Of a stretch of 64,000 nucleotides of DNA, positions 4,037 through 50,569 are shown piece after piece. The position numbers and the translations under genes are program-made. Position 1 is the stretch's first letter; every line of letters starts with the position of its first letter. This DNA comes from Syntrophales bacterium (GTDB taxonomy: Bacteria > Desulfobacterota > Syntrophia > Syntrophales > PHBD01). The notes under the pieces are model-generated. The model was not told the DNA's origin. It did no database searches and was given only the letters and a program-made list of their open reading frames with translations. The stretch lies in assembly GCA_963668175.1 (NCBI GenBank), contig OY764159.1, forward strand, positions 3,104,001 through 3,168,000, written 5' to 3'.

Positions 4037-6130
4037 ATGAAGAAGAAAGCAGTAAGTTGTCTGGCCGTCGTCGTTGTATTCATGACGGCCGCCACCGGAA
4101 AAGGACTGGCCGCCGCCAACGACAAACAGGAAGAACCTGTGAGACTCGAGGAGATCGTCGTCACGGCGACCAAAACGGCGGAAAAGCGCAGCGATGTACC
4201 CAACGCCGTCGTCATCAAGGACAGGGAAGACATCCGCACTTCGGGGGCGAAATCCATCGGGGAATTGCTGGCCAATGAACCAGGCATCGACTGGCAGTCC
4301 TACGGCAATTACGGGGGAGCGCCGCAGGAAATCCATATCCGCGGCATGCAGGGCAAGGCGACGCAGGTCTTCGTGAACGGCGTCAACGTCAATTCGCCGT
4401 CTTTAGGTACGGCGGACGTGGGCAAATTCTCCATGGACAACATCGAGCGGATCGAGGTCGTGAAGGGATCGGGTTCCCTCCTTTACGGCTCCGGCGCCAT
4501 GGGCGGCACCGTCAACATCATGACCAGGCGGCCCAGCAGGGACAAGATGGACTTACGGGTGGAAACGGGCTACGGCTCGCAGAATACTTACCGCGTATCG
4601 GCCGAGCAGGGCATGTTCGTCGTGGGCGATCTCGGCTACTACATTACCGGCGGCCGCCGGGAAACGGACGGTTACCGAGATAACAGCTTTCTGCGGCAGA
4701 ACGACGCCTCGCTCAGGGTGGTCCTCGAGAAAGGAGAAAAACTGGACGTCAGCCTCTACGGCAGCCTGATCGACCGCTCCTACGGGATGCCCGGCGTCAA
4801 GCCGCCCGCCGGCACGCGGGACTATTATCGCGGAGCCGTCAGGTTCTATGACAGCGACTCGGCAACGCTCCTGAACCACAGCGAAGACAAGGACGGACAG
4901 GCCGTCGCCGAGATCAAGGGCAGGCCGGTGTCATGGCTCGGCTACGATCTCAAGGGCTACAACACCAAAATGACCAACTACAACTACGAACGCTATGCCT
5001 CCGACGGGACGGGGGCCGAGAACTGGGTGACCAACCGGGTCCTGGGAACGGACGGCCATCTGGAGATCCGTCCCTTCGAGGGCGCCGGTCTCCTTCTCGG
5101 CGGGGAATATAAGGATTTCTCCTGGAAAAACGAAGCTATCAGCCTGAACAGCAGCGGCGAACCCAAAACCGGCATCAAGACCGAAACCGAGGCCCATCTG
5201 TTCAGCAGCGGGACATTCGGAGAAATTCAGTACAGGCCGTTTAAATATGTCAAGGGGCTCGTCGGCCTGCGCCACGAAGACCATTCGGCCTTCGGCTCGG
5301 AGAACCTGCCGCTCTTCGGCCTCGTCGTCAACCCGCTTCCCACGACGGCCCTGAAGTTCAATCACGGCAAGCATTTCGAGGCTCCCACGCCGAACGACCT
5401 CTACTGGCCGGCCGACCCCTATACCAAGGGCAACGCCAACCTGAAACCGGAGATCGGGTGGCACACGGATGTCACGGCGGAGCAATCGTTCATGGACAAC
5501 AAGGTGTTCCTGACGGCGTCGTACTTCCACTGGAACGTGGACAATAAAATCCAGTGGGAACCGGATTCCAACGCAGTCTGGAGCCCGATCAACCTGGCCG
5601 GCTACAAGGCGGACGGGATCGAGGCGGGGATGAAGACCGGGCCTTTCTACAATCTGACGCTCTCCCTGGCCTTCACGTACCTGAAAGCGGAAGAGGAGAA
5701 CCGTCAATATACCCGTCAGGATTACGGCCCGCCGGCGGATTTCCGGTACACCATGGTCACGCGGAAGGCGACCATGACGCCCGAACGCCTGTTCAAGGGG
5801 GACCTGACCTACAAGAGCGACTTCGGGCTGACCGCGTCGGCGACGGTAAGGTTCACCGGCGACCGCGTCATGTATAATACGGTTAGCACGGCCTACCCCG
5901 ACACGAGGACCGTCCTGTATACCCTCGATTCTTACTGGACGGTGGATATGAAGGTCCAGCAGCGCCTTTACAAGCACTGGATTCTCTCGCTCTCCGGAAG
6001 CAACCTCCTGGACGCGGCCTACGACACGCACCTGACGACCTTCACCGACCAGATCACCTCCAGGTCGACCATGAGCGGATATCCGGGCGCGGGGAGAACC
6101 GTTTTTTGCAGCATCGCCTATGAATATTAG
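4037..6130 (+). CDS. btuB: TonB-dependent outer membrane receptor, corrinoid uptake
   Basis: Signal peptide, TonB box EEIVVTAT, plug motif IERIEVVKGSGSLLYGSGAMGGTVNI, NLKPE, C-terminal GRTV...YEY; directly downstream of a B12 riboswitch. Confidence 0.9.
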   Translation: MKKKAVSCLAVVVVFMTAATGKGLAAANDKQEEPVRLEEIVVTATKTAEKRSDVPNAVVIKDREDIRTSGAKSIGELLANEPGIDWQSYGNYGGAPQEIHIRGMQGKATQVFVNGVNVNSPSLGTADVGKFSMDNIERIEVVKGSGSLLYGSGAMGGTVNIMTRRPSRDKMDLRVETGYGSQNTYRVSAEQGMFVVGDLGYYITGGRRETDGYRDNSFLRQNDASLRVVLEKGEKLDVSLYGSLIDRSYGMPGVKPPAGTRDYYRGAVRFYDSDSATLLNHSEDKDGQAVAEIKGRPVSWLGYDLKGYNTKMTNYNYERYASDGTGAENWVTNRVLGTDGHLEIRPFEGAGLLLGGEYKDFSWKNEAISLNSSGEPKTGIKTETEAHLFSSGTFGEIQYRPFKYVKGLVGLRHEDHSAFGSENLPLFGLVVNPLPTTALKFNHGKHFEAPTPNDLYWPADPYTKGNANLKPEIGWHTDVTAEQSFMDNKVFLTASYFHWNVDNKIQWEPDSNAVWSPINLAGYKADGIEAGMKTGPFYNLTLSLAFTYLKAEEENRQYTRQDYGPPADFRYTMVTRKATMTPERLFKGDLTYKSDFGLTASATVRFTGDRVMYNTVSTAYPDTRTVLYTLDSYWTVDMKVQQRLYKHWILSLSGSNLLDAAYDTHLTTFTDQITSRSTMSGYPGAGRTVFCSIAYEY

Positions 6131-13050: not shown

Positions 13051-14676
13051 ATGTCTGAAGAAGCATCAGGAAAAGGGATCAGCAGGCGCGGCTTCATCAA
13101 GGCGACGGCGGCCGGCGCAGGTGCCGTGGCGGCCATGGGCCTGGGAGCGACACATGCGGAAGCGAAAATCAACGTCCCGAAGAAATGGGACCGGGAAGCG
13201 GACGTCGTCATTGTAGGATACGGCGGAGCCGGGGCCTGCGCCGCCATCGAGGCCCATGACGCAGGAGCCAAAGTGCTCATCCTGGAAAAATTGAAGGAAA
13301 GCGGAGGCAATACGGGTGTATCCGGCGGCGGCATCCTTTCGCCGGACAACGCGGAAGACGCTTACACCTATATCAGCGGCCTTTACGAATTCTCCCATTC
13401 GGACATGGACAAAGACCTGGTCAGGCTTTACGCCGACGAGTCCGTCAAAAATATCGAATGGGTCAAGTCCCTCAAACCGGGAACAGAATCCCTCATCTAC
13501 GGCGGCGCGGGATATCCCAAGGTGCCCGGCGCCAAATCGATGAAAAAGCACCAGATCGCCGGCGAAGGAAAAGGTTTGCAGGGCAGCTCGAAAAACCTCT
13601 GGAACCTCTTCGTCTATGCCGTCGAGGAAAAACGTAAGATCACCGTGCTTATGGAAACTCCCGCCCAGGAACTCGTCATGAACGCGAACGGCGAAATCGT
13701 CGGCGTCATCGCCAGCGAGAAAGGCAAGAAGATCGCCGTCCGGGCGAAGCGGGCCGTCATCATGACGCTGGGCGGCTACGAGTTTAACACGCAGGACCTC
13801 CAGAACTCCGTCAAGGGCTATCCCATTTATGCCCTGGGCAGCCCCGGCAACACGGGCGACGGCATCCGAATGGCCCAGAAGGTCGGCGCCGGCCTCTGGC
13901 ACATGAACGGTACGTCCTGCCCCCTGGGCATCAAGACGAAAGAGTTCGAGGCGGCCTTCCCCGCCGTGATCGGCACGCCGCGCCACATCATGGTGGACAA
14001 GCACGGCAGCCGTTTCGTCAACGAAAAGGCCGTGGAACTGCATGCGGGGCTCCTCGCGGTGGACCATTTCGACACCCACGCGCTGGAATATCCGCGGATA
14101 CCCTCCTACATCATCTTCGACGAAGTCGCCCGCAAGTCCGGCCCCATCACGGTCCTCGCCGGTATGGGCCATGCGGGCCGGCGGTACAAATGGAGCGGCG
14201 ACAACAGCAGGGAAATCGAAAAGGGCTGGATCCTGAAAGGAGACACGCTGGCGGAACTTGCCGGAAAAATCAAGACGATGAACAAGGAAACGCTGGAGAA
14301 GACGGTAGCCAAATGGAACGAGGACATCGCCAAGGGCGGCGATACGCTCTTCCACCGGCCGATCCGTTCGGGCGACCCGTCGAGTCCCGCCTATAAGGAA
14401 CTGGCCACGGCCCTCTGGTCGGCGCCGATCGACACGCCGCCGTTTTATGCCGTCGAACTTCATCCCGCGCTGCTCAACACCCAGGGCGGACCGAAACGCA
14501 ACACGCGGTCTCAGATGCTCGACGCCTTCGGAAAGCCGATTCCGCGGCTGTACTGCGCCGGAGAGTTCGGCTCCATGTGGGGCATTATTTATCAAGGTGC
14601 GGGTAACATCGGCGAATGCGTCGTTTTCGGCCGGATTGCCGGAAAGAACGCCGCCGCCGAGAAGCCCTGGAAATGA
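13051..14676 (+). CDS. Tat-exported FAD-dependent oxidoreductase (flavocytochrome c flavin subunit, FAD_binding_2 family)
   Basis: SRRGFIK Tat motif with AEA cleavage site, VVIVGYGGAG, GGNT, NTGDGIRMA, G.RFVNE, IPRLYCAGE. Confidence 0.9.
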   Translation: MSEEASGKGISRRGFIKATAAGAGAVAAMGLGATHAEAKINVPKKWDREADVVIVGYGGAGACAAIEAHDAGAKVLILEKLKESGGNTGVSGGGILSPDNAEDAYTYISGLYEFSHSDMDKDLVRLYADESVKNIEWVKSLKPGTESLIYGGAGYPKVPGAKSMKKHQIAGEGKGLQGSSKNLWNLFVYAVEEKRKITVLMETPAQELVMNANGEIVGVIASEKGKKIAVRAKRAVIMTLGGYEFNTQDLQNSVKGYPIYALGSPGNTGDGIRMAQKVGAGLWHMNGTSCPLGIKTKEFEAAFPAVIGTPRHIMVDKHGSRFVNEKAVELHAGLLAVDHFDTHALEYPRIPSYIIFDEVARKSGPITVLAGMGHAGRRYKWSGDNSREIEKGWILKGDTLAELAGKIKTMNKETLEKTVAKWNEDIAKGGDTLFHRPIRSGDPSSPAYKELATALWSAPIDTPPFYAVELHPALLNTQGGPKRNTRSQMLDAFGKPIPRLYCAGEFGSMWGIIYQGAGNIGECVVFGRIAGKNAAAEKPWK

Positions 14677-14700
14677 AAGTGACCCGTTTATGACTGAAAA

Positions 14701-14744
14701 CGGGGGACCGGTCCCATTGCGGGCCCGGTCCCCCGCCTGTTTTT
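14701..14744 (+). terminator. Strong GC hairpin between the flavoprotein and cytochrome genes
   Basis: cgggggaccgg(14701-14711)/ccggtcccccg(14725-14735), followed by cctgttttt. Could terminate or stabilise the transcript. Confidence 0.5.
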
Positions 14745-14763
14745 CCTTAAGGAGTATTTGGAT

Positions 14764-15144
14764 ATGAAAATGGAACATCCCCGATTCCGGAAGGCCGGCA
14801 TGGTCCTGGCAGCCGCTTGTGTTCTCCTGTTGACTGTCTTCTGGCAGGGTTCGTCTTACGGCGGTCCCGAAGAGAAAAAATTTCTCGCCGACCGGCACCA
14901 GGCCAAGGGCATTGCCTGCGCCTCCTGCCACAAGGAAAACCCGCCCAAGGCGGCGGTGCCCATGGCGGTCTGCCTCGGCTGCCACGGCTCGTACGAAAAA
15001 GTGGCCTCCAGAACGCTCAAGGCCTCGCCCAATCCCCACGCGTCCCATATGGGCGAACTGGCGTGCGAGAACTGCCACCACGCCCACAAGGCGTCGGCAA
15101 GCCAGTGCAATACGTGTCACGAGTTCAACATGAAGATGCGTTGA
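14764..15144 (+). CDS. Small periplasmic tetraheme cytochrome c
   Basis: Signal peptide; four CxxCH motifs (CASCH, CLGCH, CENCH, CNTCH); NPHASH motif like the flavocytochrome c3 heme domain. Confidence 0.92.
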   Translation: MKMEHPRFRKAGMVLAAACVLLLTVFWQGSSYGGPEEKKFLADRHQAKGIACASCHKENPPKAAVPMAVCLGCHGSYEKVASRTLKASPNPHASHMGELACENCHHAHKASASQCNTCHEFNMKMR

Positions 15145-15871: not shown

Positions 15872-17344
15872 ATGAGCAATCGGCAGGCGGACATGAGGGA
15901 CGAAGACAAGACCAGAGAAGAGCTCGTCCGGGAAATGGCGGAAATGCGCCGTTACATCGCCGGACTGGAAAAGACGGATGCCGATCACAGAAAAGCGGCT
16001 GAGGCGCTGATTGAATCGGAATGGAAATTCTCGGCCGCCTTCCGGTACAGCCCTGTCTCCATCGCCATGACGGCACCCTTCTCGGGCCGAATCATCGATG
16101 TCAACGACACTTTCCTCCAAGATATGGAATATACGAGGGAAGAGGTCATCGGTCGCACAACGATCGAACTGGGCATTTTCGCAGACATCGAAGACCGCTC
16201 CCGCCTCATCGACGAACTGAAGGCACAGAAATTCGTCTTCGGCTATGAGTGCCGCTTCCGGACGAAATCGGGCCGTATCCGCACAAGCATCTTGTCCATT
16301 ACGTTTTTACCGGTCAAAGGCGAAATCGTCCAGCTTTCCATCGGCATCGATATCACCGAACGCAAGCTGATGGAGGAGGCCCTCCGGGAGAGCGAAGAGA
16401 AATACCGGACGGTCGTGGAAAAAGCCAACGAGGCCATCGTCATCGCCCAGGACGGGAAACTGGCCTATGTGAACCCCAAGCTCGCCGCCGTTATGGGAGT
16501 CACCATTGAAGAACTCACCGGCATGCCCTTTGTGGAACTCATCCACCCGGACGACCGGGCCATGGTGATGGACTGCTACCGGCGGAGGCTCGACGGCGAG
16601 GATGTTCCCGATTGTTACGAATTCAGGGTAATGGGCAGGGAACACGAGCTCATCTGGTTTTATATTTCCGCCCAGAAAATCCTGTGGAACGGCAGGCCGG
16701 CGACGCTCAACCTGCTCACGGACATCACGGAACGGAAACGGGCGGAAGAGGCGCTCCGGGAGAGCGAAACGATGTTCCGAAACCTCTTCGAACAGCATGC
16801 CGCCATCAAGTTCATCATCGACCCGGACGACGGTTCCATCGTCGATGCCAACGCCCGGGCAGCGGAATTCTACGGCTGGACGCGGGACCAGTTCCGCCGG
16901 ATGAAGATTCAGGACATCAATATCCTGTCGCCCGAAGAAGTAAAACGGGAAATGGAAAACGCCAGGTCCAACAAACGCATTCATTTCGATTTCCGTCACA
17001 GGCTTGCGGATGGTTCCATCCGGGACGTGGAAGTCTACAGCAGCATGATCGATGCCAAGGGGAAAGCGCTCCTGCACTCCATCATTCACGACGTCACCGA
17101 GCGCAAGCGCCTGGAGAAAGAGCGGGAGGGGCTCATTGAGAGCCTCCGGAAGGCCCTTTCGGAAATCAAGCAATTGAGCGGGCTCCTGCCGATCTGCTCC
17201 TCCTGCAAGAAGATCCGCAACGACGAAGGGTATTGGGAACAACTGGAAATATACATCAAGAACCACTCGGACGCGGACTTCAGTCACGGCATATGCCCGG
17301 AATGCGTGGCCAGACTGTATCCCGACCTGAAAAAAGATCCGTGA
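15872..17344 (+). CDS. Triple PAS/PAC domain protein with C-terminal Cys/His motif domain
   Basis: Three segments ending D(I/V)TERK; C-terminal LLPICSSCKKIR...HGICPEC; no kinase or cyclase domain. Start is 15872 or 15893. Confidence 0.88.
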   Translation: MSNRQADMRDEDKTREELVREMAEMRRYIAGLEKTDADHRKAAEALIESEWKFSAAFRYSPVSIAMTAPFSGRIIDVNDTFLQDMEYTREEVIGRTTIELGIFADIEDRSRLIDELKAQKFVFGYECRFRTKSGRIRTSILSITFLPVKGEIVQLSIGIDITERKLMEEALRESEEKYRTVVEKANEAIVIAQDGKLAYVNPKLAAVMGVTIEELTGMPFVELIHPDDRAMVMDCYRRRLDGEDVPDCYEFRVMGREHELIWFYISAQKILWNGRPATLNLLTDITERKRAEEALRESETMFRNLFEQHAAIKFIIDPDDGSIVDANARAAEFYGWTRDQFRRMKIQDINILSPEEVKREMENARSNKRIHFDFRHRLADGSIRDVEVYSSMIDAKGKALLHSIIHDVTERKRLEKEREGLIESLRKALSEIKQLSGLLPICSSCKKIRNDEGYWEQLEIYIKNHSDADFSHGICPECVARLYPDLKKDP

Positions 17345-18606
17345 AGAAAACGTCTTCGGTACGGCCTATGATGACCCGGCGCACATTTTTACGGACATTG
17401 GCAAGGGTCGCCCCGGTTCTCGGCGGCGCGGGATTGATTCTTTCCGGTCCCTTCCGGAATTATCCCTGGCCTGTCGGACCCGAAGTCGCCTGGGGGGGCA
17501 CCGCCGCGGCCGACCTGCTCCGTTCGGCCCCGATGGCGCGATACTGGACATCCGCCGACTCGCCCGATGCCGATTGCCGTGCCTGCCATACCGATGCCGG
17601 CCGGATCAGAGGCCGGAAATACGTCCATAAGGACAGGATTGTCAAATGCCTCCTCTGCGCGCAGGCCTGTGTGATCGCCGAAGGCCGGCGGGGGAAGTGC
17701 CGCGTGCGGGTGAATGTCGGCGGCGAACTTAAAACGCTTTCTTACGGCCGCCCCGTCTCCATCCATACCGACCCGATCGAGAAGAAGCCCCTCTTCCATT
17801 ACCTGCCGGGATCGGAAGCCTTTTCACTCGCCACGGCAGGATGCCCCCTGCGCTGCAAATTCTGCCAGAACTGGCAGATATCCCAGGCCTCCCCCGAAGA
17901 CTTCGATACGCCCCTCACGCCGCCGTCCGGCATCGTCGGCTCCGCCCGGTCCGAAAAGGCGCCCGTCATCGCCTTTACATACAACGAGCCCACGGTCTTT
18001 ACCGAATACCTGACGGATATCGCCCGGGATGCCGGAAAACACGCCATCCGTTCCGTCCTGATCAGCTGCGGCTTCATGAACGAGGCGCCCCTTGCGGAAA
18101 TGTGCCGGGTGCTCGACGCCATCAAGATCGATCTCAAGGGCTTCAGCGAGGATTTTTACCGCAATGCCTGCGGGGCCGAACTCAAGCCCGTCCTCCGCAG
18201 CATCAAGCAGATCGCCAAAAGCCGCGTCCACCTGGAAATCGTCAACCTCGTCGTCCCGACGCTGAACGATTCGGACCGGATGATTTCCGGGCTCGTCGAT
18301 TGGGTCCTGGGCGAAGTCGGGCCCGACATCCCCGTTCATTTCACCCGCTTCCATCCGGACTATCAGCTCCTGAATCTCCCGCCCACGCCCGTCGCAACAC
18401 TTTCGAACGCCCGCGACCTGGCCCTCGCCAGGGGCATGCACTATCCCTACGTGGGGAACGTGCCGGGTCATCCCGGGAACCACACTTACTGCCCGAGCTG
18501 TAAAAAGATCGTGATCGAGCGCCAGGGGTTCTTCGTCACGGCGATGAACGTCAAGGACGGGCGCTGTAAATTCTGCCGGCGTAAAATCGCCGGCGTCTGG
18601 GCTTAG
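17341..18606 (+). CDS. amrS: AmmeMemoRadiSam system radical SAM enzyme with twin-arginine N-terminus
   Basis: CLLC..C...G.C cluster, DPIEKKPLFH, GCPLRCKFCQNWQISQ, FTYNEP, RFHPDY, YVGNV, TYCPSC...CKFC; TRRTFL. Start is GTG 17341 (overlaps upstream stop) or ATG 17368/17371. Confidence 0.92.
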   Translation: MKKTSSVRPMMTRRTFLRTLARVAPVLGGAGLILSGPFRNYPWPVGPEVAWGGTAAADLLRSAPMARYWTSADSPDADCRACHTDAGRIRGRKYVHKDRIVKCLLCAQACVIAEGRRGKCRVRVNVGGELKTLSYGRPVSIHTDPIEKKPLFHYLPGSEAFSLATAGCPLRCKFCQNWQISQASPEDFDTPLTPPSGIVGSARSEKAPVIAFTYNEPTVFTEYLTDIARDAGKHAIRSVLISCGFMNEAPLAEMCRVLDAIKIDLKGFSEDFYRNACGAELKPVLRSIKQIAKSRVHLEIVNLVVPTLNDSDRMISGLVDWVLGEVGPDIPVHFTRFHPDYQLLNLPPTPVATLSNARDLALARGMHYPYVGNVPGHPGNHTYCPSCKKIVIERQGFFVTAMNVKDGRCKFCRRKIAGVWA

Positions 18607-18618
18607 AAGGAGGATGCC

Positions 18619-20157
18619 ATGAAGACCATGCAATGGAGTCTGACGCTTTTGGCTGTCAGCCTTTGTTTCGCCGTGGCCTGCCGGGCCGACAAAACGAAGG
18701 ACGCATCCATCCGTGATCCGGTGGTCGCCGGCAAGTTCTATTCCGCCACCGCCGCCAAGCTTAGACTGGGCATCGAGAAATTCATGCAGGACGCCCTGCC
18801 CGCTAGGGTTGGAAATCCCGTCGCCATCGTTGTGCCCCACGCAGGCTATATCTATTCCGGCCAGATCTGCGCCGACGGGTTCCGCCAGGCGGCGAACGGC
18901 AAATACGATACCGTCGTCATCCTCGGAACGAATCATACGAACGGCTCATTCCGGAAGGTCTCCCTCTATCCGGGCGGCGGTTTCCGCACCCCCCTGGGGG
19001 ACGTGCCGGTGGACAGGGACATTGTTGCCGCCCTGATCGCGGCGGCTCCCGAGGATTGCGTTTCCGACAAATCGCTCCATGCATCGGAGCATTCCGTCGA
19101 GGTCATGGTGCCCTTTATCCAGGTCGTTTTTCCCAAGGCGAAGATCGTGCCCGCCGTTGTCGGGTCGTCCGATCCGGAAATCACGGCCCGCTTCGGCCGG
19201 GCCCTGGCCAAAGTTTTAAAGAACAAACGGGCTCTGATCGTTGCCAGTTCCGATCTTTCCCACTATCCGGCGGCGGACGCCGCCGCCGTTGTCGACCGCG
19301 AGACGCTGGCGGCCATAGCCGGATTCGACCCCGCCGCCTTCCGGAAGGTCGCCGGGGCACGACCGGCCAAGGCCGTTTCCGAACTCCACACGCGGGCCTG
19401 CGGCGAAGCCCCGATCCTCGCCGCCATGGAAGCCGCACGCGCCCTGGGCGCCGTTCGCGGCGAGGTGATCAGTTATGCCCATTCGGGAGATGTATCCGTC
19501 GGCGACCGCTCGCGGGTGGTCGGTTACGGCGCCGTCGCTTTTACAGCAGAAGCGAAAGGCAAAGACGGCGCAACGGCAGCAGTACCCGCGCCAGTCGCCT
19601 CATCCTCCCCTCTCCGGCCTGAGGACAAGAAAGCACTTCTGGCTTTTTCCCGGGAAACCCTGTCCCGCATCTTCCTTACGGACACGGTGCCCCTGGCGAG
19701 GGGCTTTACTCCTAACTTACGGGAAACGCGGGGCGTTTTCGTGACCCTCAAGAAGAAGGGAGAACTGCGGGGCTGTATCGGCCGCATCGTCGGCGACGGC
19801 CCCCTGGACGAACTGGTCGGCACCATGACGCTCCAGTCGGCCTTCAGCGACAGTCGCTTCGATCCGCTTGCCCCGGCGGAACTTAAGGAAATCGAGATCG
19901 AAATCTCCGTTCTGACGCCCCTCATGGAAGTGTCTTCTCCCGCCGCCATCGTCGCCGGCCGTGACGGCGTTCTGCTCATCAAAGGGCGCCATTCCGCGGT
20001 CTTCCTGCCGCAGGTGGCAACGGAACAGGGATGGAACAGGGAAGTAATGCTCGACCACCTCTGCCGCAAGGCCGGGCTTCCGCCGGGAAGCTGGAAGGAG
20101 GGGGCGCGCTTGCAGGTTTTTCAGGCGGATGTGTTCGGCGAATCGGATTTCAGATAA
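18619..20157 (+). CDS. amrB: AmmeMemoRadiSam protein B (MEMO1-like) fused to protein A (AMMECR1-like), with lipoprotein-type signal
   Basis: B: PHAGYIYSG, EHSVEV, SSDLSHY, ACG, VVGY. A: GVFVTL, LRGCIG, EISVLT, FLPQVA, LCRKAGL. N-terminus MKTMQWSLTLLAVSLCFAVA-C. Confidence 0.92.
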   Translation: MKTMQWSLTLLAVSLCFAVACRADKTKDASIRDPVVAGKFYSATAAKLRLGIEKFMQDALPARVGNPVAIVVPHAGYIYSGQICADGFRQAANGKYDTVVILGTNHTNGSFRKVSLYPGGGFRTPLGDVPVDRDIVAALIAAAPEDCVSDKSLHASEHSVEVMVPFIQVVFPKAKIVPAVVGSSDPEITARFGRALAKVLKNKRALIVASSDLSHYPAADAAAVVDRETLAAIAGFDPAAFRKVAGARPAKAVSELHTRACGEAPILAAMEAARALGAVRGEVISYAHSGDVSVGDRSRVVGYGAVAFTAEAKGKDGATAAVPAPVASSSPLRPEDKKALLAFSRETLSRIFLTDTVPLARGFTPNLRETRGVFVTLKKKGELRGCIGRIVGDGPLDELVGTMTLQSAFSDSRFDPLAPAELKEIEIEISVLTPLMEVSSPAAIVAGRDGVLLIKGRHSAVFLPQVATEQGWNREVMLDHLCRKAGLPPGSWKEGARLQVFQADVFGESDFR

Positions 20158-20300
20158 CCGGGACGAAGAAAAGGCCTTCGGGCTTGAGTTGTGCGGCAGG
20201 CCCGGTGCCTGACCGTTCGCCGCCATCCGCCTCCTTATACTATCCCTGCGGAAGCCGTCACCGGTTCCCGGGGTGTCCTCATGAAAATATGCGATAGACC

Positions 20301-22487
20301 ATGACGGTACCTCTTCTCTCCATCGGACTGATTTCGATCCTGGCCCAGGTCGTCATACTCCGGGAATTGAACGTCGCCCTCTACGGGATTGAGCTCGTCT
20401 ACCTTTTCGCGCTGGGCCTCTGGCTGCTCTGGACGGCGGCGGGGGCCGTGGCCGGCGGCTTTGTCCGCTCCCCGTCCCGACGGGATATGGCGGCCTTCTT
20501 CATCCTCTTCGGACTGATTCTTCCCGGCGATATCGTCTTCATCCGGGGCAGCCGTCTTCTTTTCGGCGGTATGTCCGGAACCTACCTGTCCTTTTTCCAG
20601 CAGCTCACCGTGGCCGCTCTCTCGCTTCTGCCGGCGGGCTTCCTGTCCGGCGTGCTTTTCCAATGGACGGCCAGGGCCTATATCGAACCTAACCGGACGC
20701 TGGCCGCCGCCTATGCCGTCGAGAGCGCCGGTGGACTCATCGGCGGCCTTTTGTCGACCCTCTTTCTATACGTCGGTCTCGCGAACCTCGGCATCGCCCT
20801 GGTTTGCTCACTCGTTGCCGCTCTCACACCCCTGGCGTTGACAGCCAGACAGCCGTCCGTTCTCGGCAAGGCCAGGAAACCGGTATTCCTGAAGCTGGCG
20901 GCCATTCTCCTGGCCTGCGCCAGCCTTGCCCTCCTTTGGCAATCGCCCAACCTGGACCGCAGGCTGAACCGCTGGAACCACCCGGACCTCCTGGAAAGCA
21001 ACGATTCCCCCTACGGCCGGATCACCATGACCCGCCTCCAGGACCAGGTCTCGGTCTTCGAAAACGACGCCCTCGCCTTCGAAACGGAAGGGACCGAGGC
21101 CGAAGCCTTCTGCCATTTGGCGGCCCTCCAGCATCGGAACCCGCGGGAAATCCTCATCCTGGGGGGCGGCATCGAAGGGCTCGTCCGGGAGGCGCTGAAA
21201 CACCGGCCGCAACGGATCGACTATGTCGAACTGAATCCCGTACTCCTCGATCTCGTAACCCGCCACCTCCCCCAGGACATCGGAGCGTCCCTGAAGGCGC
21301 CCAACGTCAGGACCACGGTCGCCGATCCCCGGCGATACCTCCGGACAAGCGGCACCTACGACCTTATCCTCGTCGGCATGCCGGAGCCGGCGTCGGGCCA
21401 GGCCAACCGCTTTTACACGCGGGAGTTCTTCGTCCAATGCGCGGCAAAGCTGAAGCCGGGCGGCATCCTGGCCTTCCGTCTCCGCACGGCGGAGAACCTC
21501 TGGCCCCTGCCCCTCGTTCGCCGGAATGCAAGCATCTACCGCGCACTCCAGGCCGTCTTTCCCCATGTCCTCTTCCTGCCGGGAACGACGAACATCGTAA
21601 CCGCCTCGCGCGCGGCCCTGCCGGATGCGCCGGAGGTCATGTCCGGCCGCCTGCAGGAACGGAGAATCGCGACGCGGCTCGTATCGGCAAACTATATCCG
21701 GTATCTCTTCACCAACGACCGATTCGCCGCCATCCGGGACCTGCTTCAAAAGGGAACGGCGCCGCCCAACACGGACATAAGGCCCGTCTGCTACCAGTAC
21801 GCCTTCGTAATCTGGCTTTCCAAATTCTTCCCCGGCCTCACCCAGGCGGACCCGACCGCCATTATCGACAAGGGACTTTTTCATTCGCCCTTCGTGTGGT
21901 TTGCGGGATTGGCCCTTCCCGTTCTCTTTCTTCTCAGCCGCCTGCGGCCCGGCTTCCGCCGCCTCCTCCTTGTCGCGGTATCCGGTTTTCTCGGTATGGT
22001 CGCAGAGACGGTCCTCATTCTCTACTACCAGGTCAAATACGGGGTCCTCTACCGGGACATCGGCCTTCTCCTCATGAGCTTCATGGCGGGACTGGCCCTC
22101 GGGGCCCTGGCGATGAACCGCCTGATGGACCGGCCGTTCGGCGGACTCAAGAAGCCGCGCAGGTACGGCGCAGCGACGCTCGCCGGCTTCGCCCTCCTCT
22201 GCGCGTATCTGGCCTGGACCGTCTCCGGCAGTGCCGCCGCGGGACTGGTGCATACATCCATCTTGCTCTTTTCGGCAGGACTTTTCGTCGCGGCGATCTT
22301 CTCCTACGCGGCCCTCCATGAAATCGAAGACCAGACCCGGATCATCGGCCCGTTCTATGCCGCAGACCTCGCAGGCGGATGCATGGGCTCGCTCATGGCC
22401 AGCCTGGTCTTTATTCCATTGACCGGCATGGATACGTCGGCAATGGGAATGCTCTTTCTTGCCGTTCTTTCGGTATTGCTGATCTAG
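20301..22487 (+). CDS. Polytopic membrane protein with a central spermidine-synthase-like SAM-binding domain
   Basis: About 7 N-terminal TMs, SPYGRI, LILGGGIEG, YVELNP, ADPRRY, NRFYTREFF, LKPGG, then a C-terminal TM block with YAADLAG. Confidence 0.82.
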   Translation: MTVPLLSIGLISILAQVVILRELNVALYGIELVYLFALGLWLLWTAAGAVAGGFVRSPSRRDMAAFFILFGLILPGDIVFIRGSRLLFGGMSGTYLSFFQQLTVAALSLLPAGFLSGVLFQWTARAYIEPNRTLAAAYAVESAGGLIGGLLSTLFLYVGLANLGIALVCSLVAALTPLALTARQPSVLGKARKPVFLKLAAILLACASLALLWQSPNLDRRLNRWNHPDLLESNDSPYGRITMTRLQDQVSVFENDALAFETEGTEAEAFCHLAALQHRNPREILILGGGIEGLVREALKHRPQRIDYVELNPVLLDLVTRHLPQDIGASLKAPNVRTTVADPRRYLRTSGTYDLILVGMPEPASGQANRFYTREFFVQCAAKLKPGGILAFRLRTAENLWPLPLVRRNASIYRALQAVFPHVLFLPGTTNIVTASRAALPDAPEVMSGRLQERRIATRLVSANYIRYLFTNDRFAAIRDLLQKGTAPPNTDIRPVCYQYAFVIWLSKFFPGLTQADPTAIIDKGLFHSPFVWFAGLALPVLFLLSRLRPGFRRLLLVAVSGFLGMVAETVLILYYQVKYGVLYRDIGLLLMSFMAGLALGALAMNRLMDRPFGGLKKPRRYGAATLAGFALLCAYLAWTVSGSAAAGLVHTSILLFSAGLFVAAIFSYAALHEIEDQTRIIGPFYAADLAGGCMGSLMASLVFIPLTGMDTSAMGMLFLAVLSVLLI

Positions 22488-22638
22488 AGAGGCGCCGGGT
22501 CGAACCGCGCCCCTGACGCCGCCTTTAACCGGGTTTGATAATCGTTTGGCTTTCTTTCTTCCTCTTATCTGGTATGATGATTACAAGTACATTTACAATC
22601 CGGACGGGGACTTTTCTTTTGGCGGAGAACGGAAGACC

Positions 22639-23421
22639 ATGGACCGATTCCCGGAAAAGCAGGTGACGATAGACTTCTTTAAGGCCGTATGGCCTGCATT
22701 TGCCGCTCAGGCCGTCATTCTGCTCGTCCCATTGTTTTTCCAGGAGTTCTCTCTTCAATCCGGAACCAGGTCGGTCTGGATGGTCATCTTTCGCTTCCTG
22801 CGTCTTTCGGTCTTCCTGCTCGTGCCGATCCTGTTCCTACGCAGGATTCTCGCTCTCGCCGGTTCCCTGTTTCAGATCGGCGCACGGGAGCTGGTCCAGA
22901 TTCGGCAGGAAAGCATGGAGAAGATATCGCCTCTCAAAAACTGGCTGCTCAGGCCGCTCCAGGGAATCGGCGTTTCCATGCTCGTCGCGACAAAATTGAT
23001 CGTGCTTCTGGAGATATACAGCGGCGAAGGTATTGCGGCATCCGTCTTCCTGCCCCCGCCGATGTTCAGCCTGCAGAGATTTTTCGTGACGGCCGCCATG
23101 GCCTTCGCCGTTTCCTTGGTGCTGTCCTCTCTGTGGACCCTGGAGGACCTCGGCATTCGCTTGTATAACCGGAAAACCCGTGAAATCCGGAAGATCGGCA
23201 AATACTTCGGCCTGATCCTTCCTCTTGTTCTCGGGTTCTACGGACTGATGAGTCTTTCCCATACCCACGCCACGGCCATGGCCATACGATACTTCATAAT
23301 GATGGCCATGATCCTTTATCCGCCGTTTCTGATCCTCAACGTTTTTCATGCCTTTTATATCAACAGAAACGAAAACCGTCTGCTTACAGTCCTGCGTGTG
23401 AAAGCGAAAATGGCCCTCTAA
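22639..23421 (+). CDS. Hypothetical multi-pass membrane protein
   Basis: About six hydrophobic segments; ATG after GGAG; no recognised motif. Confidence 0.7.
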   Translation: MDRFPEKQVTIDFFKAVWPAFAAQAVILLVPLFFQEFSLQSGTRSVWMVIFRFLRLSVFLLVPILFLRRILALAGSLFQIGARELVQIRQESMEKISPLKNWLLRPLQGIGVSMLVATKLIVLLEIYSGEGIAASVFLPPPMFSLQRFFVTAAMAFAVSLVLSSLWTLEDLGIRLYNRKTREIRKIGKYFGLILPLVLGFYGLMSLSHTHATAMAIRYFIMMAMILYPPFLILNVFHAFYINRNENRLLTVLRVKAKMAL

Positions 23422-35947: not shown

Positions 35948-36736
35948 ATGCGCCTTAACGTTACGATAGCGGCGGTTCTCTTGCTGCTCGCCGGCTGCGC
36001 GCCGGCCCCCTACGTCTTTCCGGATCGGGCCCTCGTCGACAGGGACGTCGTCGCGGATGCCGTCGCCACCCAGAAGCAGATAGACGCCCAGGGCGAAAAG
36101 GACCCGCCGCAGGGCGCGTCCTGGTTTGCGGTGATCGAGGGGCCCTCCCCCGTTATCGTCACGGCCCCCCATGCGGCGATGACGTTCCGCGAGAGGACGG
36201 CCCGTTTCTCCGACGGCGGCGGCACGGCGGCGCTGGCGAAGGCCCTGAACAGGGTCGCCGGGGCGACCGTCCTTTACACCACCTATGCCGGCCCGTCCGA
36301 CCCGGACTATTACGACGACAACGAATTCAAGCGCACCCTGGACAAGCTCATCGACGAACGCAAGCCAGTGCTGGTGCTCGATATCCACGGGAGCCACGCC
36401 TACTGCCCCTACGACGTGGACATGGGCACGATGTTCGGCAAGTCCCTCATGGGGAACGAAGCCGCCGCCGCGCGGCTGGCGGAAACGCTGAAGAAAGAGG
36501 GCATCCTGAACATCTCTTATAACTTCTCAAGCGCGGGCGACCGCGACACGATCGCCAAATTCGCCTCGCAGCGGAACGTCCCCGCCATCCAGTTAGAAAT
36601 CAACCGCACGTGGCTGACGCCCGCGCAGAGCGACCTTGCCGCCCACCGCTTCGCCCAGCTTCTCCAGGCTCTGGCGCGCTACATCGAGGCCGAAAAGTCC
36701 GAAGCCCCCGCCATGCTGCTTGAAGAAGCACGCTGA
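35948..36736 (+). CDS. Lipoprotein, N-formylglutamate amidohydrolase-like Zn hydrolase
   Basis: LAG-C lipobox; TAPH, LDIHG, DVDMGT, IQLEIN. Confidence 0.78.
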   Translation: MRLNVTIAAVLLLLAGCAPAPYVFPDRALVDRDVVADAVATQKQIDAQGEKDPPQGASWFAVIEGPSPVIVTAPHAAMTFRERTARFSDGGGTAALAKALNRVAGATVLYTTYAGPSDPDYYDDNEFKRTLDKLIDERKPVLVLDIHGSHAYCPYDVDMGTMFGKSLMGNEAAAARLAETLKKEGILNISYNFSSAGDRDTIAKFASQRNVPAIQLEINRTWLTPAQSDLAAHRFAQLLQALARYIEAEKSEAPAMLLEEAR

Positions 36737-36976
36737 TACTTACGGCCCTGCCCTGTTCTGCTTCGCCCCGCCCTGCTTCACCGCCCGGCCGGATGCAGCG
36801 GACAGATCGCACCCCCGCCCCCACCACGCAGCAACGCCACGATCTCCCCCGTGCTCAGGCTATATTCTTAATATATTGTGGATATAAAATCCGAATCGTG
36901 CTAGGAAGCTGCTATACGAAAAATACGTAAACCCGTTCCATCCCGCAACCCCAAGCCGGAGGGAAATATGGACCAA

Positions 36977-37021
36977 CTGAAAACCCCGATTCTGTGAAGA
37001 AGGCGGGGTTTTCAGCGTTTA
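36977..37021 (+). terminator. Perfect 12-bp inverted repeat at the left edge of the AT-rich island
   Basis: ctgaaaaccccg(36977-36988)/cggggttttcag(37004-37015). Confidence 0.55.
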
Positions 37022-37147
37022 TCAAATTAATAAGATTTAACAAATCGAATATATATCCACCAATTTACCTATAAATGCTGTGGAATATTAATGTAGTAAC
37101 TTACTTAAATCTTTGTTATTAGAAATGATTTAGCGGAATATTTTTCA

Positions 37148-40100
37148 ATGAAAAAGATACCCTCCAAAATGCCCAAAAGACCGCAAGCACATAGAATTGG
37201 TGACCGTGCAGTTAAAGAATTTAAACAAAAAAGTTCTGACTTCTGGGCTATTACAGAATCTGAAAACGATTACGGATGGGACTTAATCATTACAATTAGT
37301 GAATCTGAAGAAGTTAAAGACGATTTCTTCGTTCAAGTCAAAGGCTCTAATTCACCAGACTATATTAATAATCAGAAGTATATCAGCGTGAATCTCAACG
37401 GGAGTACGGTAAACTGGCTGTTGTCTAAGCCTATGCCAACAATGCTATGCATATGTGACACTTCTAAAAAGGGTAAACCAGTCTTTTATACTTGGATTCA
37501 AGAAGATATAAAGAGGATTGCCAAAAATAACCCAAAATGGGAAGAACAGGAGAATTTGGTATTTCATATACTTGTCTCCGAAGAATTATGCGAAGAAAAC
37601 TATAGTCAAATTGAAACTTATGTAAAAGAGTTTTATGAAAACTTAAAAATATCAGCTGCAATTGGAGATATATTACGACCGAGTTTCGGTTACAAAGGCA
37701 ACACTGCCCTTTCAGCCTACACGCAAGAAACAGAACAACATCTTCTTGAAAATATTCCTACTTCTATGAAGGAAACCGGTATCTTTGATGTTTCCGCAAA
37801 CAAGGTACATGGAAGTCGGTTACATGTCCTGTCAGCTCTTGATCAAAAGCTCTTCAAGGAAATCAAAAAATCATCAGAAGCTTTAAAGGAAATGAGATCG
37901 GATAAGGCTAGAGAAATCATCTCGGAGATTGAGGAAGAAATTAAATTAGCCTCACATGTTATCCAAGCACGATTTCATAACAACCTAGGAGTATTGTATT
38001 TACAATCTAGGTCTGAAGAAATGGCTTTGAGAGCATTTCGAAAGGCCAACAAGTTATGTCCCAATGATTTAAAATATCAAACAAATATTTTGATGACAGA
38101 ATACATTCTTCTGACAAAAAGTTCAGATAAAACAAAAGAAGTTTTAATTGGAAGTAATTGGCATAAAAAACTAAATAAAATATTTTCCAAAGATCGTGAA
38201 TTCGCAGGCATTGTTCGTCTGAAGGCAATATCAATTGGCAAAGAAATAAATGCTCAAGCAGCTGAAGACTATATCAGGGCCCAGAAAGTATGGAAAGAAG
38301 AACCAATCGCCGCGCGGTGTGAATTGGCAGATCTTTACAAGGACGAAGGTGATTGGGATAATGCGATAAGGGTACTCAAAGAAGTTGAACAACAAGCGAT
38401 GGGACTTGATGGCTTATACTGGAACTTATACGGAATCTGTATGCTACAAAAAGCATTAGGAGGCATCGGATGGCACGCGTTGAAAGGTATTCACGGGACA
38501 GGACCGAGTCAATTAAATATCAATGACTTAAAGAAATCCGAACAATGCTTGATTAAATCATGCAAGGAATTTGAACAAGTCGGTTTTCCACCACTATCAA
38601 GTATACCAATTATCAATCTCGTAGCCGTTCAGCGTATATTGGGCCACGCACATGACGCTGAGCAATATTGCAGGTCCTTTTTGAGGAAATACCCGAATCA
38701 CGCGGGCGTGGCTGGCGCTATAGCCACATGCGCGATAATGAAAGATGATTTTTCTACAGCTACAACATATTCAAAAATAGCTTATGAGGCGCAGCAAGAT
38801 GATTCATTAGCTTACCGAAACTACATGCTCTGTCTATTCTTATCAGATGACGCAGATGCGCTCATAGAATTGATACTCAAACGGCAAAAGATAGGCTTTT
38901 CAGATTCTAAGGAAAAATCAATATCATTATCTCTTTATGCAACTGCACTCAATGAAATCGGCCGCATTGATGATGCAAAAAAACAAATTAACATCATGAA
39001 GACAAACCCAGAAATGCTCGATGATGCATTCGTGGCTGAAGCGGCTATAGCGCGTAGCAATGGGATGTCAAGAAAAGAAATCAAGCAAATATTTATAGAA
39101 GCTTTAAATTCTAATCCGAAAAGCTCAATTCTTTTAACACATTATTTCGATTGCCTTGCCCCGTCGGAACCCGATGACTCCGGAGAACTCATTAATATTA
39201 TTTCACTCTTAGCAAATAATCGACAACTGTCGCCGTTAGAAGCTTATACTCTCGGCATTTGTTATATGACACTCAATAACGCAGAAAAAGCACTTGAAAT
39301 CTTCGGAAAAGGCAGCGAGAGGTTTCCGGAAGAGAGTAGATTCTTATATGGACAGGCAAGGGCTTTATCACTGCTCGGTAATGATGAGGAAGCTTATTCT
39401 GTTTTGAAGAAATATTTCGATTTAGGGAAAAAGGATTATGCTGTTATAAAAAATTTAGCCATAATGGCGATGGAGACGGGAAGACTTAATGAAGCAATCA
39501 ATTTATTTCAAAAAGCAATTTTAAAATCTCAGAATGCCGATGAACGCGGCGATCTTCATAATCAGTTGTGGGAACTTAAAAGAAGGCGAGGTGATCCGTC
39601 GAAAGAAGTAATACGTCATATTATTGAATATGGCAAAACAACCGGTAATAACCCTGAAAAAGAAGCTCGCTTTCTTATAATGGCTCTTCTATCACCATAT
39701 GGTGAAACGGATGAAGAAGAAAAAGATTGGAATAATGAAATTAGAAGGAGAATTAAGAATTTTTCACAAAATCATCCACGGTTTCCTGTGTTCACTACTT
39801 TTGATATTCCATCAAATCTTTCAAGTGAAGAGTTGGGAAATTACATAATGGCTCAAATCGCCGCAGTGATGCTTCCCAGACAACTTGCTACTGCGCCTTT
39901 GGAGATTGCAACTCGTTCAGTTCCATTTCCTCTGGTTTTCAGAGCTCATTTATTACCTTCTTATGGATCAACATTTAGTTATTGGTCTCATTGCATTTCA
40001 TCAAAAGAATTTTCATCGGCAATACATATCTTTGGTGATTTTAACTCATTAGCGCGAGAAATAGATTATTCATCGAAAACATCCACTATATGTATTGATT

Positions 40101-41254: not shown

Positions 41255-41401
41255 TAATAGGCATTATTTATGTTCTATCTTCTCTTTCCGGATTAATATG
41301 TCATTCGTATAAATAGCACCCAGAAACAATCAACCTTCTTGCCTAGAACGCTATCGTAAATAATTTTTCCGGCATGATTTACCTTGTGGCTTTTCCTACC
41401 G

Positions 41402-43371: not shown

Positions 43372-43422
43372 CTTTATCCCCCCATTAAATATTGTTCGTA
43401 TGAACTCCGAATATGCTCGGCC

Positions 43423-45081: not shown

Positions 45082-45103
45082 CTTTCCGCCCGTTGACTTC
45101 ACA

Positions 45104-50552: not shown

Positions 50553-50569
50553 ACAACCGCACCTCCTTG

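Follow-up and report, generated by a model that had tools for sequence, protein, structure and literature searches.

The window, a 64,000-nucleotide stretch of contig OY764159.1 from a Syntrophales bacterium, appears to encode an exported variant of the AmmeMemoRadiSam system with a dedicated membrane partner; as a whole explanation, we put the probability of this reading slightly above even, at roughly 0.55. The gene set, the export signals and the membrane architecture that an earlier note had reported for this DNA are real, with small corrections. The predicted export and partnership of AmrS, an AmrB-AmrA fusion and a membrane protein are well supported by sequence conservation and structure modeling. 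An extracytoplasmic location, as the note had proposed, agrees with a Tat-type and a Sec-type signal, an asymmetry of basic residues in the membrane protein, a CxxCH linker in AmrS, and relatives in which an anchor, FMN_bind and AmrS follow one another in one chain. Its claim of a coupling to the membrane gene likewise fits adjacency in varying order and strand, a predicted complex, and gene fusions. The window exceeds the cut-offs of all three AmmeMemoRadiSam families (TIGR04337, TIGR04336 and TIGR04335) with adjacent genes, and B is joined to A in one protein, an arrangement that many prokaryotes share. Unlike the known system, its components all carry export signals and are joined by a fourth partner. 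We found no description of an exported AmmeMemoRadiSam or radical SAM system in the literature searched.

Export signals on AmrS and AmrB-AmrA

AmrS, the AmmeMemoRadiSam radical SAM enzyme (17368..18606, + strand, 412 amino acids), was recognized in profile searches by TIGR04337 (360.2 bits against a cut-off of 220) and PF04055 (54.1 bits). Its CxxxCxxC cluster motif (C159/C163/C166; 17842..17865, +) is invariant in a 35-sequence alignment (A1). The note had begun the gene at GTG 17341; this start is less likely, and the N-termini and lengths of homologues (mostly 396–415 amino acids among the 120 best) point to ATG 17368 (MMTRRTFL...) as most likely the true start.

Residues 1–28 (17368..17451, +) form a candidate Tat-type signal, T-R-R-T-F-L-R and then a moderately hydrophobic stretch, matching the S/T-R-R-x-F-L-K-type motif ahead of such a stretch that marks Tat substrates. 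The twin-arginine motif TRRTFL described before is thus present, and it is also kept: RRx[FGAVML][LIVMF] occurs within the first 60 residues of 116 of the 120 closest homologues, nearly always 2–3 residues past the Met. A strict RR rule was passed by 32 of 150 representatives (50% identity), with approximately seven more by eye, and an RR-type N-terminus was seen at 36 of 80 loci from many phyla. The Tat-signal profile PF10518 gave no match to AmrS at E ≤ 0.001, nor did any NCBIfam model match residues 1–91 at E ≤ 0.01; such models are very short. Tat transports folded, cofactor-loaded proteins, so a conserved twin-arginine signal would export AmrS in its folded state and already loaded with Fe-S clusters. 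The signal shows no clear AxA site for cleavage and may therefore be retained as a membrane anchor. In both respects, a twin-arginine motif ahead of a cofactor domain and a signal that may remain as an anchor, AmrS resembles Fe-S Tat substrates such as hydrogenase small subunits and Rieske proteins. The literature searched named no radical SAM enzyme as a Tat substrate; the radical SAM protein mentioned in PMC10924467 is only the product of a neighboring gene.

The linker between signal and core carries C-x-x-C-H (residues 70–74) and His87 (17575..17628, +). Of 120 homologues, 81 have CxxCH followed by a His 8–18 residues further on; the 39 without it are mostly shorter (35 of 396–399 amino acids, with others of 401, 409 and 506). 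Residues 70–74 have the form of the CxxCH haem-attachment motif of c-type cytochromes, here in a putatively exported segment, and together with His87 they are possibly a bis-His haem c site, haem binding being suggested by the motif. It would be uncommon for a Tat substrate to have haem attached.

Thirteen nucleotides downstream of AmrS lies the second gene (18619..20157, +, 512 amino acids), a fusion of MEMO-like AmrB (residues 32–308; TIGR04336, 251.6 bits against a cut-off of 26; PF01875, 210.5 bits) and AMMECR1-type AmrA (residues 339–506; TIGR04335, 162.2 bits against 99; PF01871, 166.7 bits). A strong Shine-Dalgarno sequence, GAAGGAGGA (18606..18614, +), overlaps the AmrS stop codon and ends 4 nt ahead of ATG 18619. 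Residues 1–21 (18619..18681, +), ending in A-V-A-C, make up a predicted Sec-type signal peptide; the N-terminus is hydrophobic in 110 of 120 homologues, the other ten being truncated gene calls. Of the signal peptide and lipobox previously assigned here, the signal held up and the lipobox did not hold as a universal feature: a loose pattern fits 99 of 120 homologues, the Cys is absent from at least three full-length ones (P0126, P0174 and P0217), and, compared with [LVI][ASTVI][GAS]C, the A-V-A-C of the window has Ala at position –3. Since the Cys is not universal, the signal could be cleaved by either signal peptidase, and it may be cut at the lipobox by signal peptidase II or a few residues further on by signal peptidase I.

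Could both signals be gene-calling artefacts, with the true starts downstream, for example at ATG 17533 for AmrS? The TIGR04337 alignment starts only at residue 96 of the long AmrS translation, and ATG 17368 has no strong Shine-Dalgarno sequence upstream. However, ATG 17533 has none either, and the fusion has a strong one at its start. The AmrS extension is moreover conserved at the protein level among homologues of 65–92% identity, is alignable across phyla, and in nearly all of them has its Met just ahead of the RR. Because the two signals are conserved as protein across hundreds of homologues from many phyla, they exceed chance, and we regard the artefact explanation as very improbable indeed.

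The membrane protein and its predicted complex with AmrS

The third gene encodes a 728-amino-acid membrane protein. The note had read it as approximately seven transmembrane segments, a Rossmann domain and a second membrane block, and AlphaFold2 gave seven helices, a SpeE fold and seven helices (pLDDT 89.5, pTM 0.89). The N-terminal block (residues 1–213; 20301..20939, +) has modeled helices at 2–26, 32–52, 60–89, 98–128, 134–158, 162–182 and 195–213, and its Q16/R21/E31 motif is invariant in alignment A3. The C-terminal block (residues 526–728 and the stop codon; 21876..22487, +), which was also modeled alone (pLDDT 90.3), has an apparently MFS-half-like fold. Among its listed Foldseek matches, MFS-type transporters as judged from their names, TMq was 0.39–0.69 and E only 0.04–0.14, with none at E ≤ 0.001; MFS_1 stayed below threshold (E = 0.053). 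NF037959, "fused MFS/spermidine synthase", scored 46.2 bits against a cut-off of 40, and relatives from other phyla scored 50.9–68.4 bits. With its apparently MFS-half-like membrane block, the protein resembles this family and PRK03612-type membrane SpeE. NF037959 is named without a function or a partner, and no paper using its name was found; the protein in the window differs in that adjacency, fusion and a complex model tie it to a putatively exported AmrS. The models suggest that the two halves of the 14-helix protein resemble the two halves of an MFS transporter, and strongly indicate that the SpeE-like domain, of an adenosyl-binding type, is inserted between them, with one extra helix on each side carrying it to the outer face.

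The basic loops on which an outside placement of the Rossmann domain had been argued by the positive-inside rule (RSPSRR, ARAY...NR and RQPSVLGKARK) are present at residues 53–62, 121–132 and 181–192. In 32 diverse homologues, K+R averaged 16.7 on the side of the N-terminus versus 4.1 on the side of the domain, and none of the 32 departed from this direction, in agreement with that placement. A TonB-dependent receptor is also encoded within the window and indicates an outer membrane.

The N-terminal segments might instead be anchors or NarG-type vestigial Tat motifs; the chemistry would then run on the cytoplasmic side of the membrane, and a cytoplasmic MFS central loop would hold the SpeE-like domain. 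The central loop of MFS proteins is cytoplasmic as a rule, SAM and reductant are cytoplasmic, and a simple hydropathy pick gave only six N-terminal helices. Against this, AlphaFold2 placed seven helices on each side; the domain lies on the low-charge side in every homologue compared, including by the independent C-terminal block (loop K+R counts of 4/2/6/0/1/0); AmrS has CxxCH in its linker; and most homologues of the fusion begin with a Sec signal of the ordinary, cleavable type. We therefore consider a cytoplasmic arrangement improbable.

The SpeE-like Rossmann domain (residues 214–525; 20940..21875, +), predicted to lie at the periplasmic face, matched PF01564 at residues 266–391 (65.9 bits) and PDB 1uir by sequence (E = 6.2e-20); its Foldseek TM-scores to SpeE and thermospermine synthase structures were 0.74–0.79 (target-normalized). 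It shares with SpeE (PDB 1uir and 1inl) the fold, the G-rich motif and two acidic residues, E310 (nearly invariant in alignment A3) and D342 (invariant), which we take to contact ribose and adenine. By contrast, it sits between two seven-helix blocks, is predicted to face outward, and does not reach the SpeE equivalog cut-offs (TIGR00417, 79.1 versus 249.55; NF002956, 105.9 versus 472). When aligned to 1uir and 1inl, the domain has G-M-P-E-P in place of D-x-x-D-P and G-G-G-I-E where an Asp follows GGG, D-x-x-D-P and that Asp presumably being the catalytic residues of SpeE. The first Asp is Gly here and N/G/D/H/K across the family; the second acidic residue is kept, most members having D and the window protein E; Ile-Glu replaces the Asp that follows GGG.

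When AmrS was modeled with its membrane partner, the two were joined at the SpeE-like domain with an ipSAE of 0.88, versus 0.01 for the best control; this mark was reached by 116 of 157 solved complexes and by 2 of 215 mismatched pairs. The runs had at least 78% of contacts in common, with a partner pLDDT of at least 90. AmrS contributed a conserved face, including residues 130–136 and 168–175 next to the cluster motif. Two observations count against our reading: on AmrS, the interface takes in residues, the DPIEKKP motif among them, that every AmrS conserves, and on the SpeE side the interface residues show lower conservation than the remainder of the domain (0.19 versus 0.30, 20 distant homologues). 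In the structure model, the AmrS core sits directly on the SpeE-like domain.

A contact of this kind need not mean that the membrane protein supplies SAM. The SpeE-like domain could be a transferase on the same periplasmic substrate, or the protein target or scaffold of an activase-like AmrS, and SAM could pass through Tat, a carrier of folded, cofactor-loaded proteins, while already bound to AmrS, and be regenerated in each cycle. After TIGR04337, the next-best family matches of AmrS are glycyl-radical activating enzymes, whose substrates are proteins; the predicted interface lies on the conserved AmrS face, as it would for a protein substrate; and of the two acidic positions in the SpeE motif, the second is preserved in the family consensus. 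Nevertheless, the first catalytic Asp is not conserved, the equivalog cut-offs are missed widely, and a transporter-like body of 12+2 helices is hard to explain in a mere scaffold. We judge this version of an exported system to be rather unlikely.

Recurrence of the gene set and electron-transfer modules in relatives

We surveyed 80 AmrS loci from many phyla, counting the membrane gene within 10 kb. AmrS had an N-terminal export-type signal at 55 loci (36 RR, 9 KR/RK and 10 hydrophobic), and AmrB/A had one at 27 of the 40 loci with AmrB/A by script, plus L069 by eye. Signal-bearing AmrS and AmrB, as the note had proposed to test, co-occur with the SpeE-like membrane gene: it was present at 33 of 80 loci, in varying order and strand, at 29 of 55 loci with an AmrS signal versus 4 of 25 without, and at 0 of 21 loci lacking a signal on both AmrS and AmrB/A. 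All seven complete signal-less AmrB/A pair with a signal-less AmrS. The Fisher test gave p = 0.005 for the association across the 80 loci, a value that overstates the evidence since only two independent contrasts lie on well-supported branches of the AmrS tree. A single 65-row group (SH-aLRT 87) accounts for most of the association, so its cases are not independent events. The survey strongly indicates that the same gene set recurs in many phyla.

At 10 loci the AmrS N-terminus is Sec-like or an anchor rather than Tat-like. Sec export would deliver unfolded protein without Fe-S clusters, and these loci are for that reason hard to reconcile with Fe-S loading. The four loci that have the membrane gene but no AmrS signal (L008, L026, L051 and L055) encode an AmrS of 324–327 amino acids beside an exported AmrB-A, and in P0497 a cytoplasmic-type AmrS is fused to a flavodoxin-FAD-NAD reductase; both speak for chemistry at the cytoplasmic face. 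Against it stand P0368 and P0376, each with a single N-terminal anchor, FMN_bind and AmrS, and no helix between FMN_bind and AmrS.

Further relatives combine AmrS with FMN_bind and Fer4_5 (P0371, P0377 and P0390, the last also with DsbD_2), NapH-type modules are fused to AmrS in some, and DsbD_2 genes adjoin AmrS at eight loci. The SpeE-like protein of L055 (1314 amino acids) has RnfG-like and NapH/NosR-like parts, both under curated cut-offs. The same set of modules, namely FMN_bind (flavinylated by ApbE), NapH/NosR-like and DsbD-like, is tied to extracytosolic redox enzymes in PMC8238504; neither "radical" nor PF04055 occurs in the main text of that paper. The AmrS of the window differs from these relatives in having no such module, only the CxxCH linker.

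A possible periplasmic mechanism and its meaning

How might an exported AmrS work? It would cross the membrane folded by its twin-arginine signal, Fe-S clusters in place, and the AmrB-AmrA fusion would be exported by a Sec or lipoprotein signal. The transporter-like part of the membrane protein may translocate SAM or a similar adenosyl-sulfonium compound, and the SpeE-like domain, its first catalytic Asp lost, may keep this compound beside AmrS instead of making polyamines. AmrS could receive electrons from periplasmic carriers, through the haem c-like CxxCH + His linker module in the clade of the window and through fused or adjacent FMN_bind, NapH/NosR-like or DsbD_2 modules in other lineages. 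The substrate would be a periplasmic or envelope molecule, or AmrA/AmrB itself, and not RNA. We offer only tentatively the full picture of a periplasmic radical SAM enzyme docked on an MFS-type SAM exporter or presenter, reduced through haem c or flavin, and modifying an envelope or extracellular substrate with MEMO-AMMECR1. To our knowledge, neither SAM nor a low-potential reductant has been reported from the periplasm, which counts against export.

The cytoplasm is where SAM, Fe-S assembly and low-potential electrons occur, and radical SAM enzymes are for this reason regarded as cytoplasmic. Our results suggest radical SAM chemistry in the periplasm, for which we know of no earlier demonstration; if the clade is truly exported, cells have a route that supplies SAM and electrons to the periplasm. 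The putatively exported AmrS clade is widespread, has its own membrane partner, and is linked to modules of extracytosolic redox enzymes as described in PMC8238504. Export would also leave fewer candidate functions for MEMO and AMMECR1, with RNA excludable as a substrate in this clade. As far as we know, these two proteins are conserved up to humans and their chemistry is unknown. If the periplasmic reading is true, it would yield a first clue to what the MEMO/AMMECR1 pair does, and likewise for the "fused MFS/spermidine synthase" family.

Export signals on the three-gene set

Three co-directional genes at 17341-22487 on the plus strand encode the radical SAM enzyme AmrS, an AmrB-A fusion, and a SpeE-like membrane protein. 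In profile searches, AmrS scored 360.2 bits against TIGR04337 (cut-off 220), and the 512-aa fusion matched both protein B (MEMO-like, TIGR04336, 251.6 bits) and protein A (AMMECR1, TIGR04335, 162.2 bits). The strong Shine-Dalgarno sequence of the fusion overlaps the AmrS stop codon.

We compared AmrS with its best 120 homologues (65–92% identity, mostly 396–415 aa), whose named sources, in NCBI and nr, are Syntrophaceae, Smithella or Deltaproteobacteria; the JGI rows are labelled only 'pyruvate formate lyase activating enzyme'. The twin-arginine signal that the earlier note had read in AmrS is kept in this set, with the motif and a hydrophobic stretch falling within the first 60 residues of 116 homologues, and in nearly all of these the motif lies 2–3 residues after the initiating Met. 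Because this spacing is shared among the homologues, AmrS most likely starts at ATG 17368 and not, as first assumed, at GTG 17341. A downstream start at ATG 17533 was ruled out since the N-terminal extension is conserved at the protein level; the TIGR04337 match begins as late as residue 96 of the longest AmrS translation. A Tat-signal profile search of AmrS gave no match. For the fusion, the proposed signal peptide stood, with a hydrophobic N-terminus in 110 of its best 120 homologues and truncated gene calls in the other 10. The proposed lipobox did not hold as a universal feature: a loose lipobox pattern fits 99 of the 120, and the Cys is missing at its place from three full-length homologues, hence the signal may instead be cut by signal peptidase I a few residues further on.

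Upstream on the same strand, a possible regulator of the operon is encoded at 15872-17344, ending 24 nt ahead of AmrS. This PAS-only protein has three PAS domains, no kinase domain and, at its end, a tail rich in Cys and His (C-x-x-C ... H ... C-x-x-C). Downstream, the plus-strand gene at 22546-23421 lies in a lower-G+C stretch and encodes a protein of 291 aa, predicted to have six helices. It matched no family in Pfam or NCBIfam and has no counterpart in any of 80 AmrS loci (see below), so we rejected it as a fourth member of the set. A TonB-dependent receptor with a Plug and a beta-barrel (4037-6130, plus strand) indicates that both an outer membrane and a periplasm are present in the organism. 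Elsewhere in the window, a stretch at ~36000-54000 is low in G+C (0.385–0.555 versus ~0.6) and encodes a 1368-aa DUF4365-TPR-PIN protein, a leucine-rich-repeat protein, an 823-aa ankyrin-repeat protein and a 1058-aa HATPase_c protein. It has the look of an acquired island and may be a system for conflict or defence; no tRNA was found in the 64,000-nt window.

In a 2007 paper (PMC2034487), AMMECR1 was proposed to modify RNA in concert with a radical SAM protein and a dioxygenase-like protein encoded nearby; RNA modification, as put there, does not fit the exported gene set of the window.

The membrane protein and its predicted contact with AmrS

The 728-aa membrane protein contains a PF01564 spermidine-synthase-type domain at residues 266–391 (65.9 bits). 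It passes the NCBIfam cut-off for the subfamily 'fused MFS/spermidine synthase' (46.2 bits, cut-off 40) and misses all SpeE equivalog cut-offs of NCBIfam widely. AlphaFold2, supplied with an alignment of 32 sequences (20–87% identity), returned a confident model (pLDDT 89.5, pTM 0.89) in which a SpeE fold is flanked by seven helices on either side, which bears out the transmembrane block, Rossmann-type domain and second transmembrane block described previously. In this 14-helix layout, loops on the N-terminal side carry a mean of 16.7 Lys+Arg versus 4.1 on the domain side, the domain itself excluded, and the direction of the asymmetry is identical in 32/32 sequences. Loop counts in the C-terminal block of the window protein are 4/2/6/0/1/0. 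Given this asymmetry, the SpeE-like domain is predicted by the positive-inside rule to face outward, in agreement with the earlier placement.

The matches listed by Foldseek for the whole model were SpeE and thermospermine synthase structures only (target-normalised TM-score 0.74–0.79), and the C-terminal block was therefore modelled separately (pLDDT 90.3). Foldseek then gave MFS-type transporters among all matches listed, a class that we take from the names of the PDB entries, at TM-scores of at most 0.69 and E-values of only 0.04–0.14. Pfam matches to the two helix blocks were all sub-threshold (MFS_1, E = 0.053; DUF3325, 26.4 bits versus a cut-off of 26.8). The central loop of MFS transporters is normally cytoplasmic. 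The protein is best read as an MFS-like body whose central loop has been swapped for a helix, an outward-facing domain and a helix.

Compared with SpeE of Thermus and Thermotoga, the SpeE-like domain retains a G-rich motif as well as two acidic residues, E310 and D342. By contrast, Gly replaces the first Asp of the catalytic motif, at a position that varies within the family; the second Asp is Glu in the window protein and Asp in most relatives; and the Asp that follows GGG in SpeE is displaced. With the roles that we presume for these residues, the changes make a standard aminopropyltransferase unlikely, and the retained acidic residues suggest that an adenosyl compound is probably still bound.

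We modelled residues 214–525 of the membrane protein with residues 86–412 of AmrS in three runs, using our own alignments. The pair scored 0.88 in the three runs versus 0.01 for the best control, with at least 78% of contacts common to the runs and partner pLDDT of at least 90. The mark was reached by 116/157 solved complexes and 2/215 mismatched pairs, counts that are only a rough guide when own alignments are used. To our knowledge there is no solved complex of SpeE with a radical SAM enzyme, hence template recall is unlikely. The model supports binding of AmrS to the SpeE-like domain; the predicted interface includes AmrS residues 130–136, 338–344 and 365–367 and, on the domain side, residues 246–265 and 459–474. 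Interface conservation gave a mixed result. AmrS interface positions are conserved somewhat above the rest of the protein (0.60 versus 0.44), include residues conserved in all AmrS, and comprise four that are peculiar to the exported group (H133, A155, P366 and G367). However, signal-less AmrS show the same bias (0.45 versus 0.36), and on the domain side conservation is lower at the interface than elsewhere in the domain (0.19 versus 0.30); the complex model is therefore not strengthened by this test.

A membrane protein of this kind might bring SAM across the membrane and present it to AmrS, which would then act on a substrate in the envelope. In the main rival reading the set is likewise exported, but the SpeE-like domain would be an enzyme, a scaffold or a target, with SAM passing through Tat as a bound cofactor.

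Candidate sources of electrons

If AmrS works outside the cytoplasm, its electron might come from haem or flavin modules. In the window clade, a C-x-x-C-H motif (C70 and C73 in AmrS) with a further His 13 residues on lies in the AmrS linker that joins signal to core. The pattern is found in 81 of the best 120 homologues and missing from shorter forms; a putative bis-His haem c is a reasonable reading of it. At a distance of two genes upstream of the operon, the stretch 13051-15144 (plus strand) encodes a Tat-signal FAD flavoprotein (FAD_binding_2, 156 bits; TAT_signal weak, E = 0.0032), then a small cytochrome c3-type protein (Cytochrom_c3_2, 67.7 bits). They look like a periplasmic flavocytochrome pair, which could be a periplasmic electron donor.

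Long AmrS relatives carry redox domains above Pfam cut-offs: DsbD_2 in P0362, P0372 and P0390; FMN_bind in P0368, P0371, P0377 and P0390; and NapH-type Fer4_5 in P0371, P0377 and P0390. In P0368 and P0376, a single N-terminal helix is followed by an FMN_bind-type region with a D-x-V-S-G-A-T flavinylation-type motif (called by Pfam for P0368, by the motif alone for P0376) and then by AmrS, with no intervening helix. In the systems covered by a survey, flavinylation of FMN_bind domains is extracytoplasmic (PMC8238504), which places the AmrS domains of both proteins outside as well. A model in which AmrS chemistry takes place at the cytoplasmic face holds only if four lines of evidence all mislead, namely helix count, charge asymmetry, Sec signal and FMN fusions. 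Helix picks in five multi-helix AmrS fusions were not consistent in parity. Dual Sec/Tat insertion of these five was considered and dropped, since no clear internal twin-arginine motif lies just before the last helix; in P0362 an RR follows the helix.

DsbD_2 genes adjoin AmrS in 8/80 loci, twice together with FMN_bind and Fer4_5. In nine loci (L006, L015, L016, L023, L024, L028, L029, L045 and L069), a protein of ~340 aa lies directly upstream of an RR-type AmrS; most copies have a twin-arginine signal by eye, and the scanned copies, L015 and L045, match DUF362. This DUF362-type protein is absent from the window. Two loci encode giant SpeE-like membrane proteins, of 1314 aa (L055:7185-11126) and 1281 aa (L051:16453-20295), and the former has C-terminal RnfG-like FMN and NapH/NosR-like parts at the domain level, below curated cut-offs. 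The AmrS of both loci is signal-less and 325–327 aa long.

P0497, in which AmrS is fused to a flavodoxin-FAD-NAD reductase, shows a cytoplasmic variant of electron supply. Many representatives are AmrS-AMMECR1-MEMO single-chain fusions of 835–1152 aa (for example P0379, P0405 and P0412). Together with P0497, these fusions confirm that the triad is a functional unit.

Distribution across AmrS loci

A strict RR-plus-hydrophobic rule was satisfied by 32 of the 150 best AmrS cluster representatives at 50% identity, and by about 7 more by eye. Inteins (Intein_splicing) interrupt the homologues P0424, P0452 and P0492 immediately ahead of the match to the radical SAM domain, with LAGLIDADG additionally in P0424 and P0452. 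We scanned one genome per species with a smaller AmrS alignment, as the alignment of 35 AmrS was too diverse for the scan. This yielded at least 600 stretches. Confirmation succeeded for 599 of the 600 listed, and we kept the best 80 loci, which were read with profiles from window homologues and rule-based classing of N-termini. They span Acidobacteriota, Omnitrophota, Bacteroidota, Planctomycetota, Nitrospirota, Myxococcota, archaea and others. The AmrS N-terminus has an RR signal in 36/80, a KR or RK variant in 9/80, a Sec-like or anchor-like hydrophobic segment in 10/80, and none of these in 25/80. AmrB/A was found in 40 of the 80, with a signal in 27 by script and in L069 by eye, and 4 run off the edge of the locus. 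Seven AmrB/A are complete yet signal-less, and all of these are paired with signal-less AmrS.

Among the best 80 loci, the 14-helix SpeE-like gene accompanies 29/55 signal-bearing AmrS versus 4/25 others (29/41 versus 4/15 where at least 3 kb was present on both sides or the gene was found), and it occurs in 0/21 loci without a signal on either AmrS or AmrB/A. The four exceptions (L008, L026, L051 and L055) have a short AmrS that begins at the first Cys motif, beside a signal-peptide AmrB-A. The proposed co-occurrence of export signals with the membrane gene is seen in these counts, but the cases are not independent on the tree. In a tree of 81 AmrS cores, one group of 65 rows (SH-aLRT 87) takes in the signal-bearing forms as well as all 34 rows that have the membrane gene, and the 16 rows outside it have neither. 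Because the cases share this one group, a Fisher p of 0.005 overstates the evidence for the association. Signal state requires six changes on the tree, only two of them being forced by well-supported branches; an independent-contrast test of signal against membrane gene had no power, with only 2 contrasts on such branches.

Two observations are unaccounted for, namely the four signal-less AmrS loci and the ten loci with Sec-like AmrS N-termini. The latter remain unexplained because Sec export would strip Fe-S clusters. Among the full-text papers searched, which come mostly from outside subscription journals, we found no description of an exported radical SAM enzyme, an exported AmmeMemoRadiSam set or the MFS/SpeE fusion; the radical SAM protein mentioned in PMC10924467 is a neighbouring gene.

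Export of the triad in the window, and its partnership with an MFS-like membrane protein bearing a SpeE domain, are well supported, and we regard the set as an exported variant of AmmeMemoRadiSam. In some loci the membrane gene is upstream, in others downstream or on the opposite strand, so its adjacency has outlived rearrangement. The gene set is old and widely inherited, rather than a product of repeated convergence.
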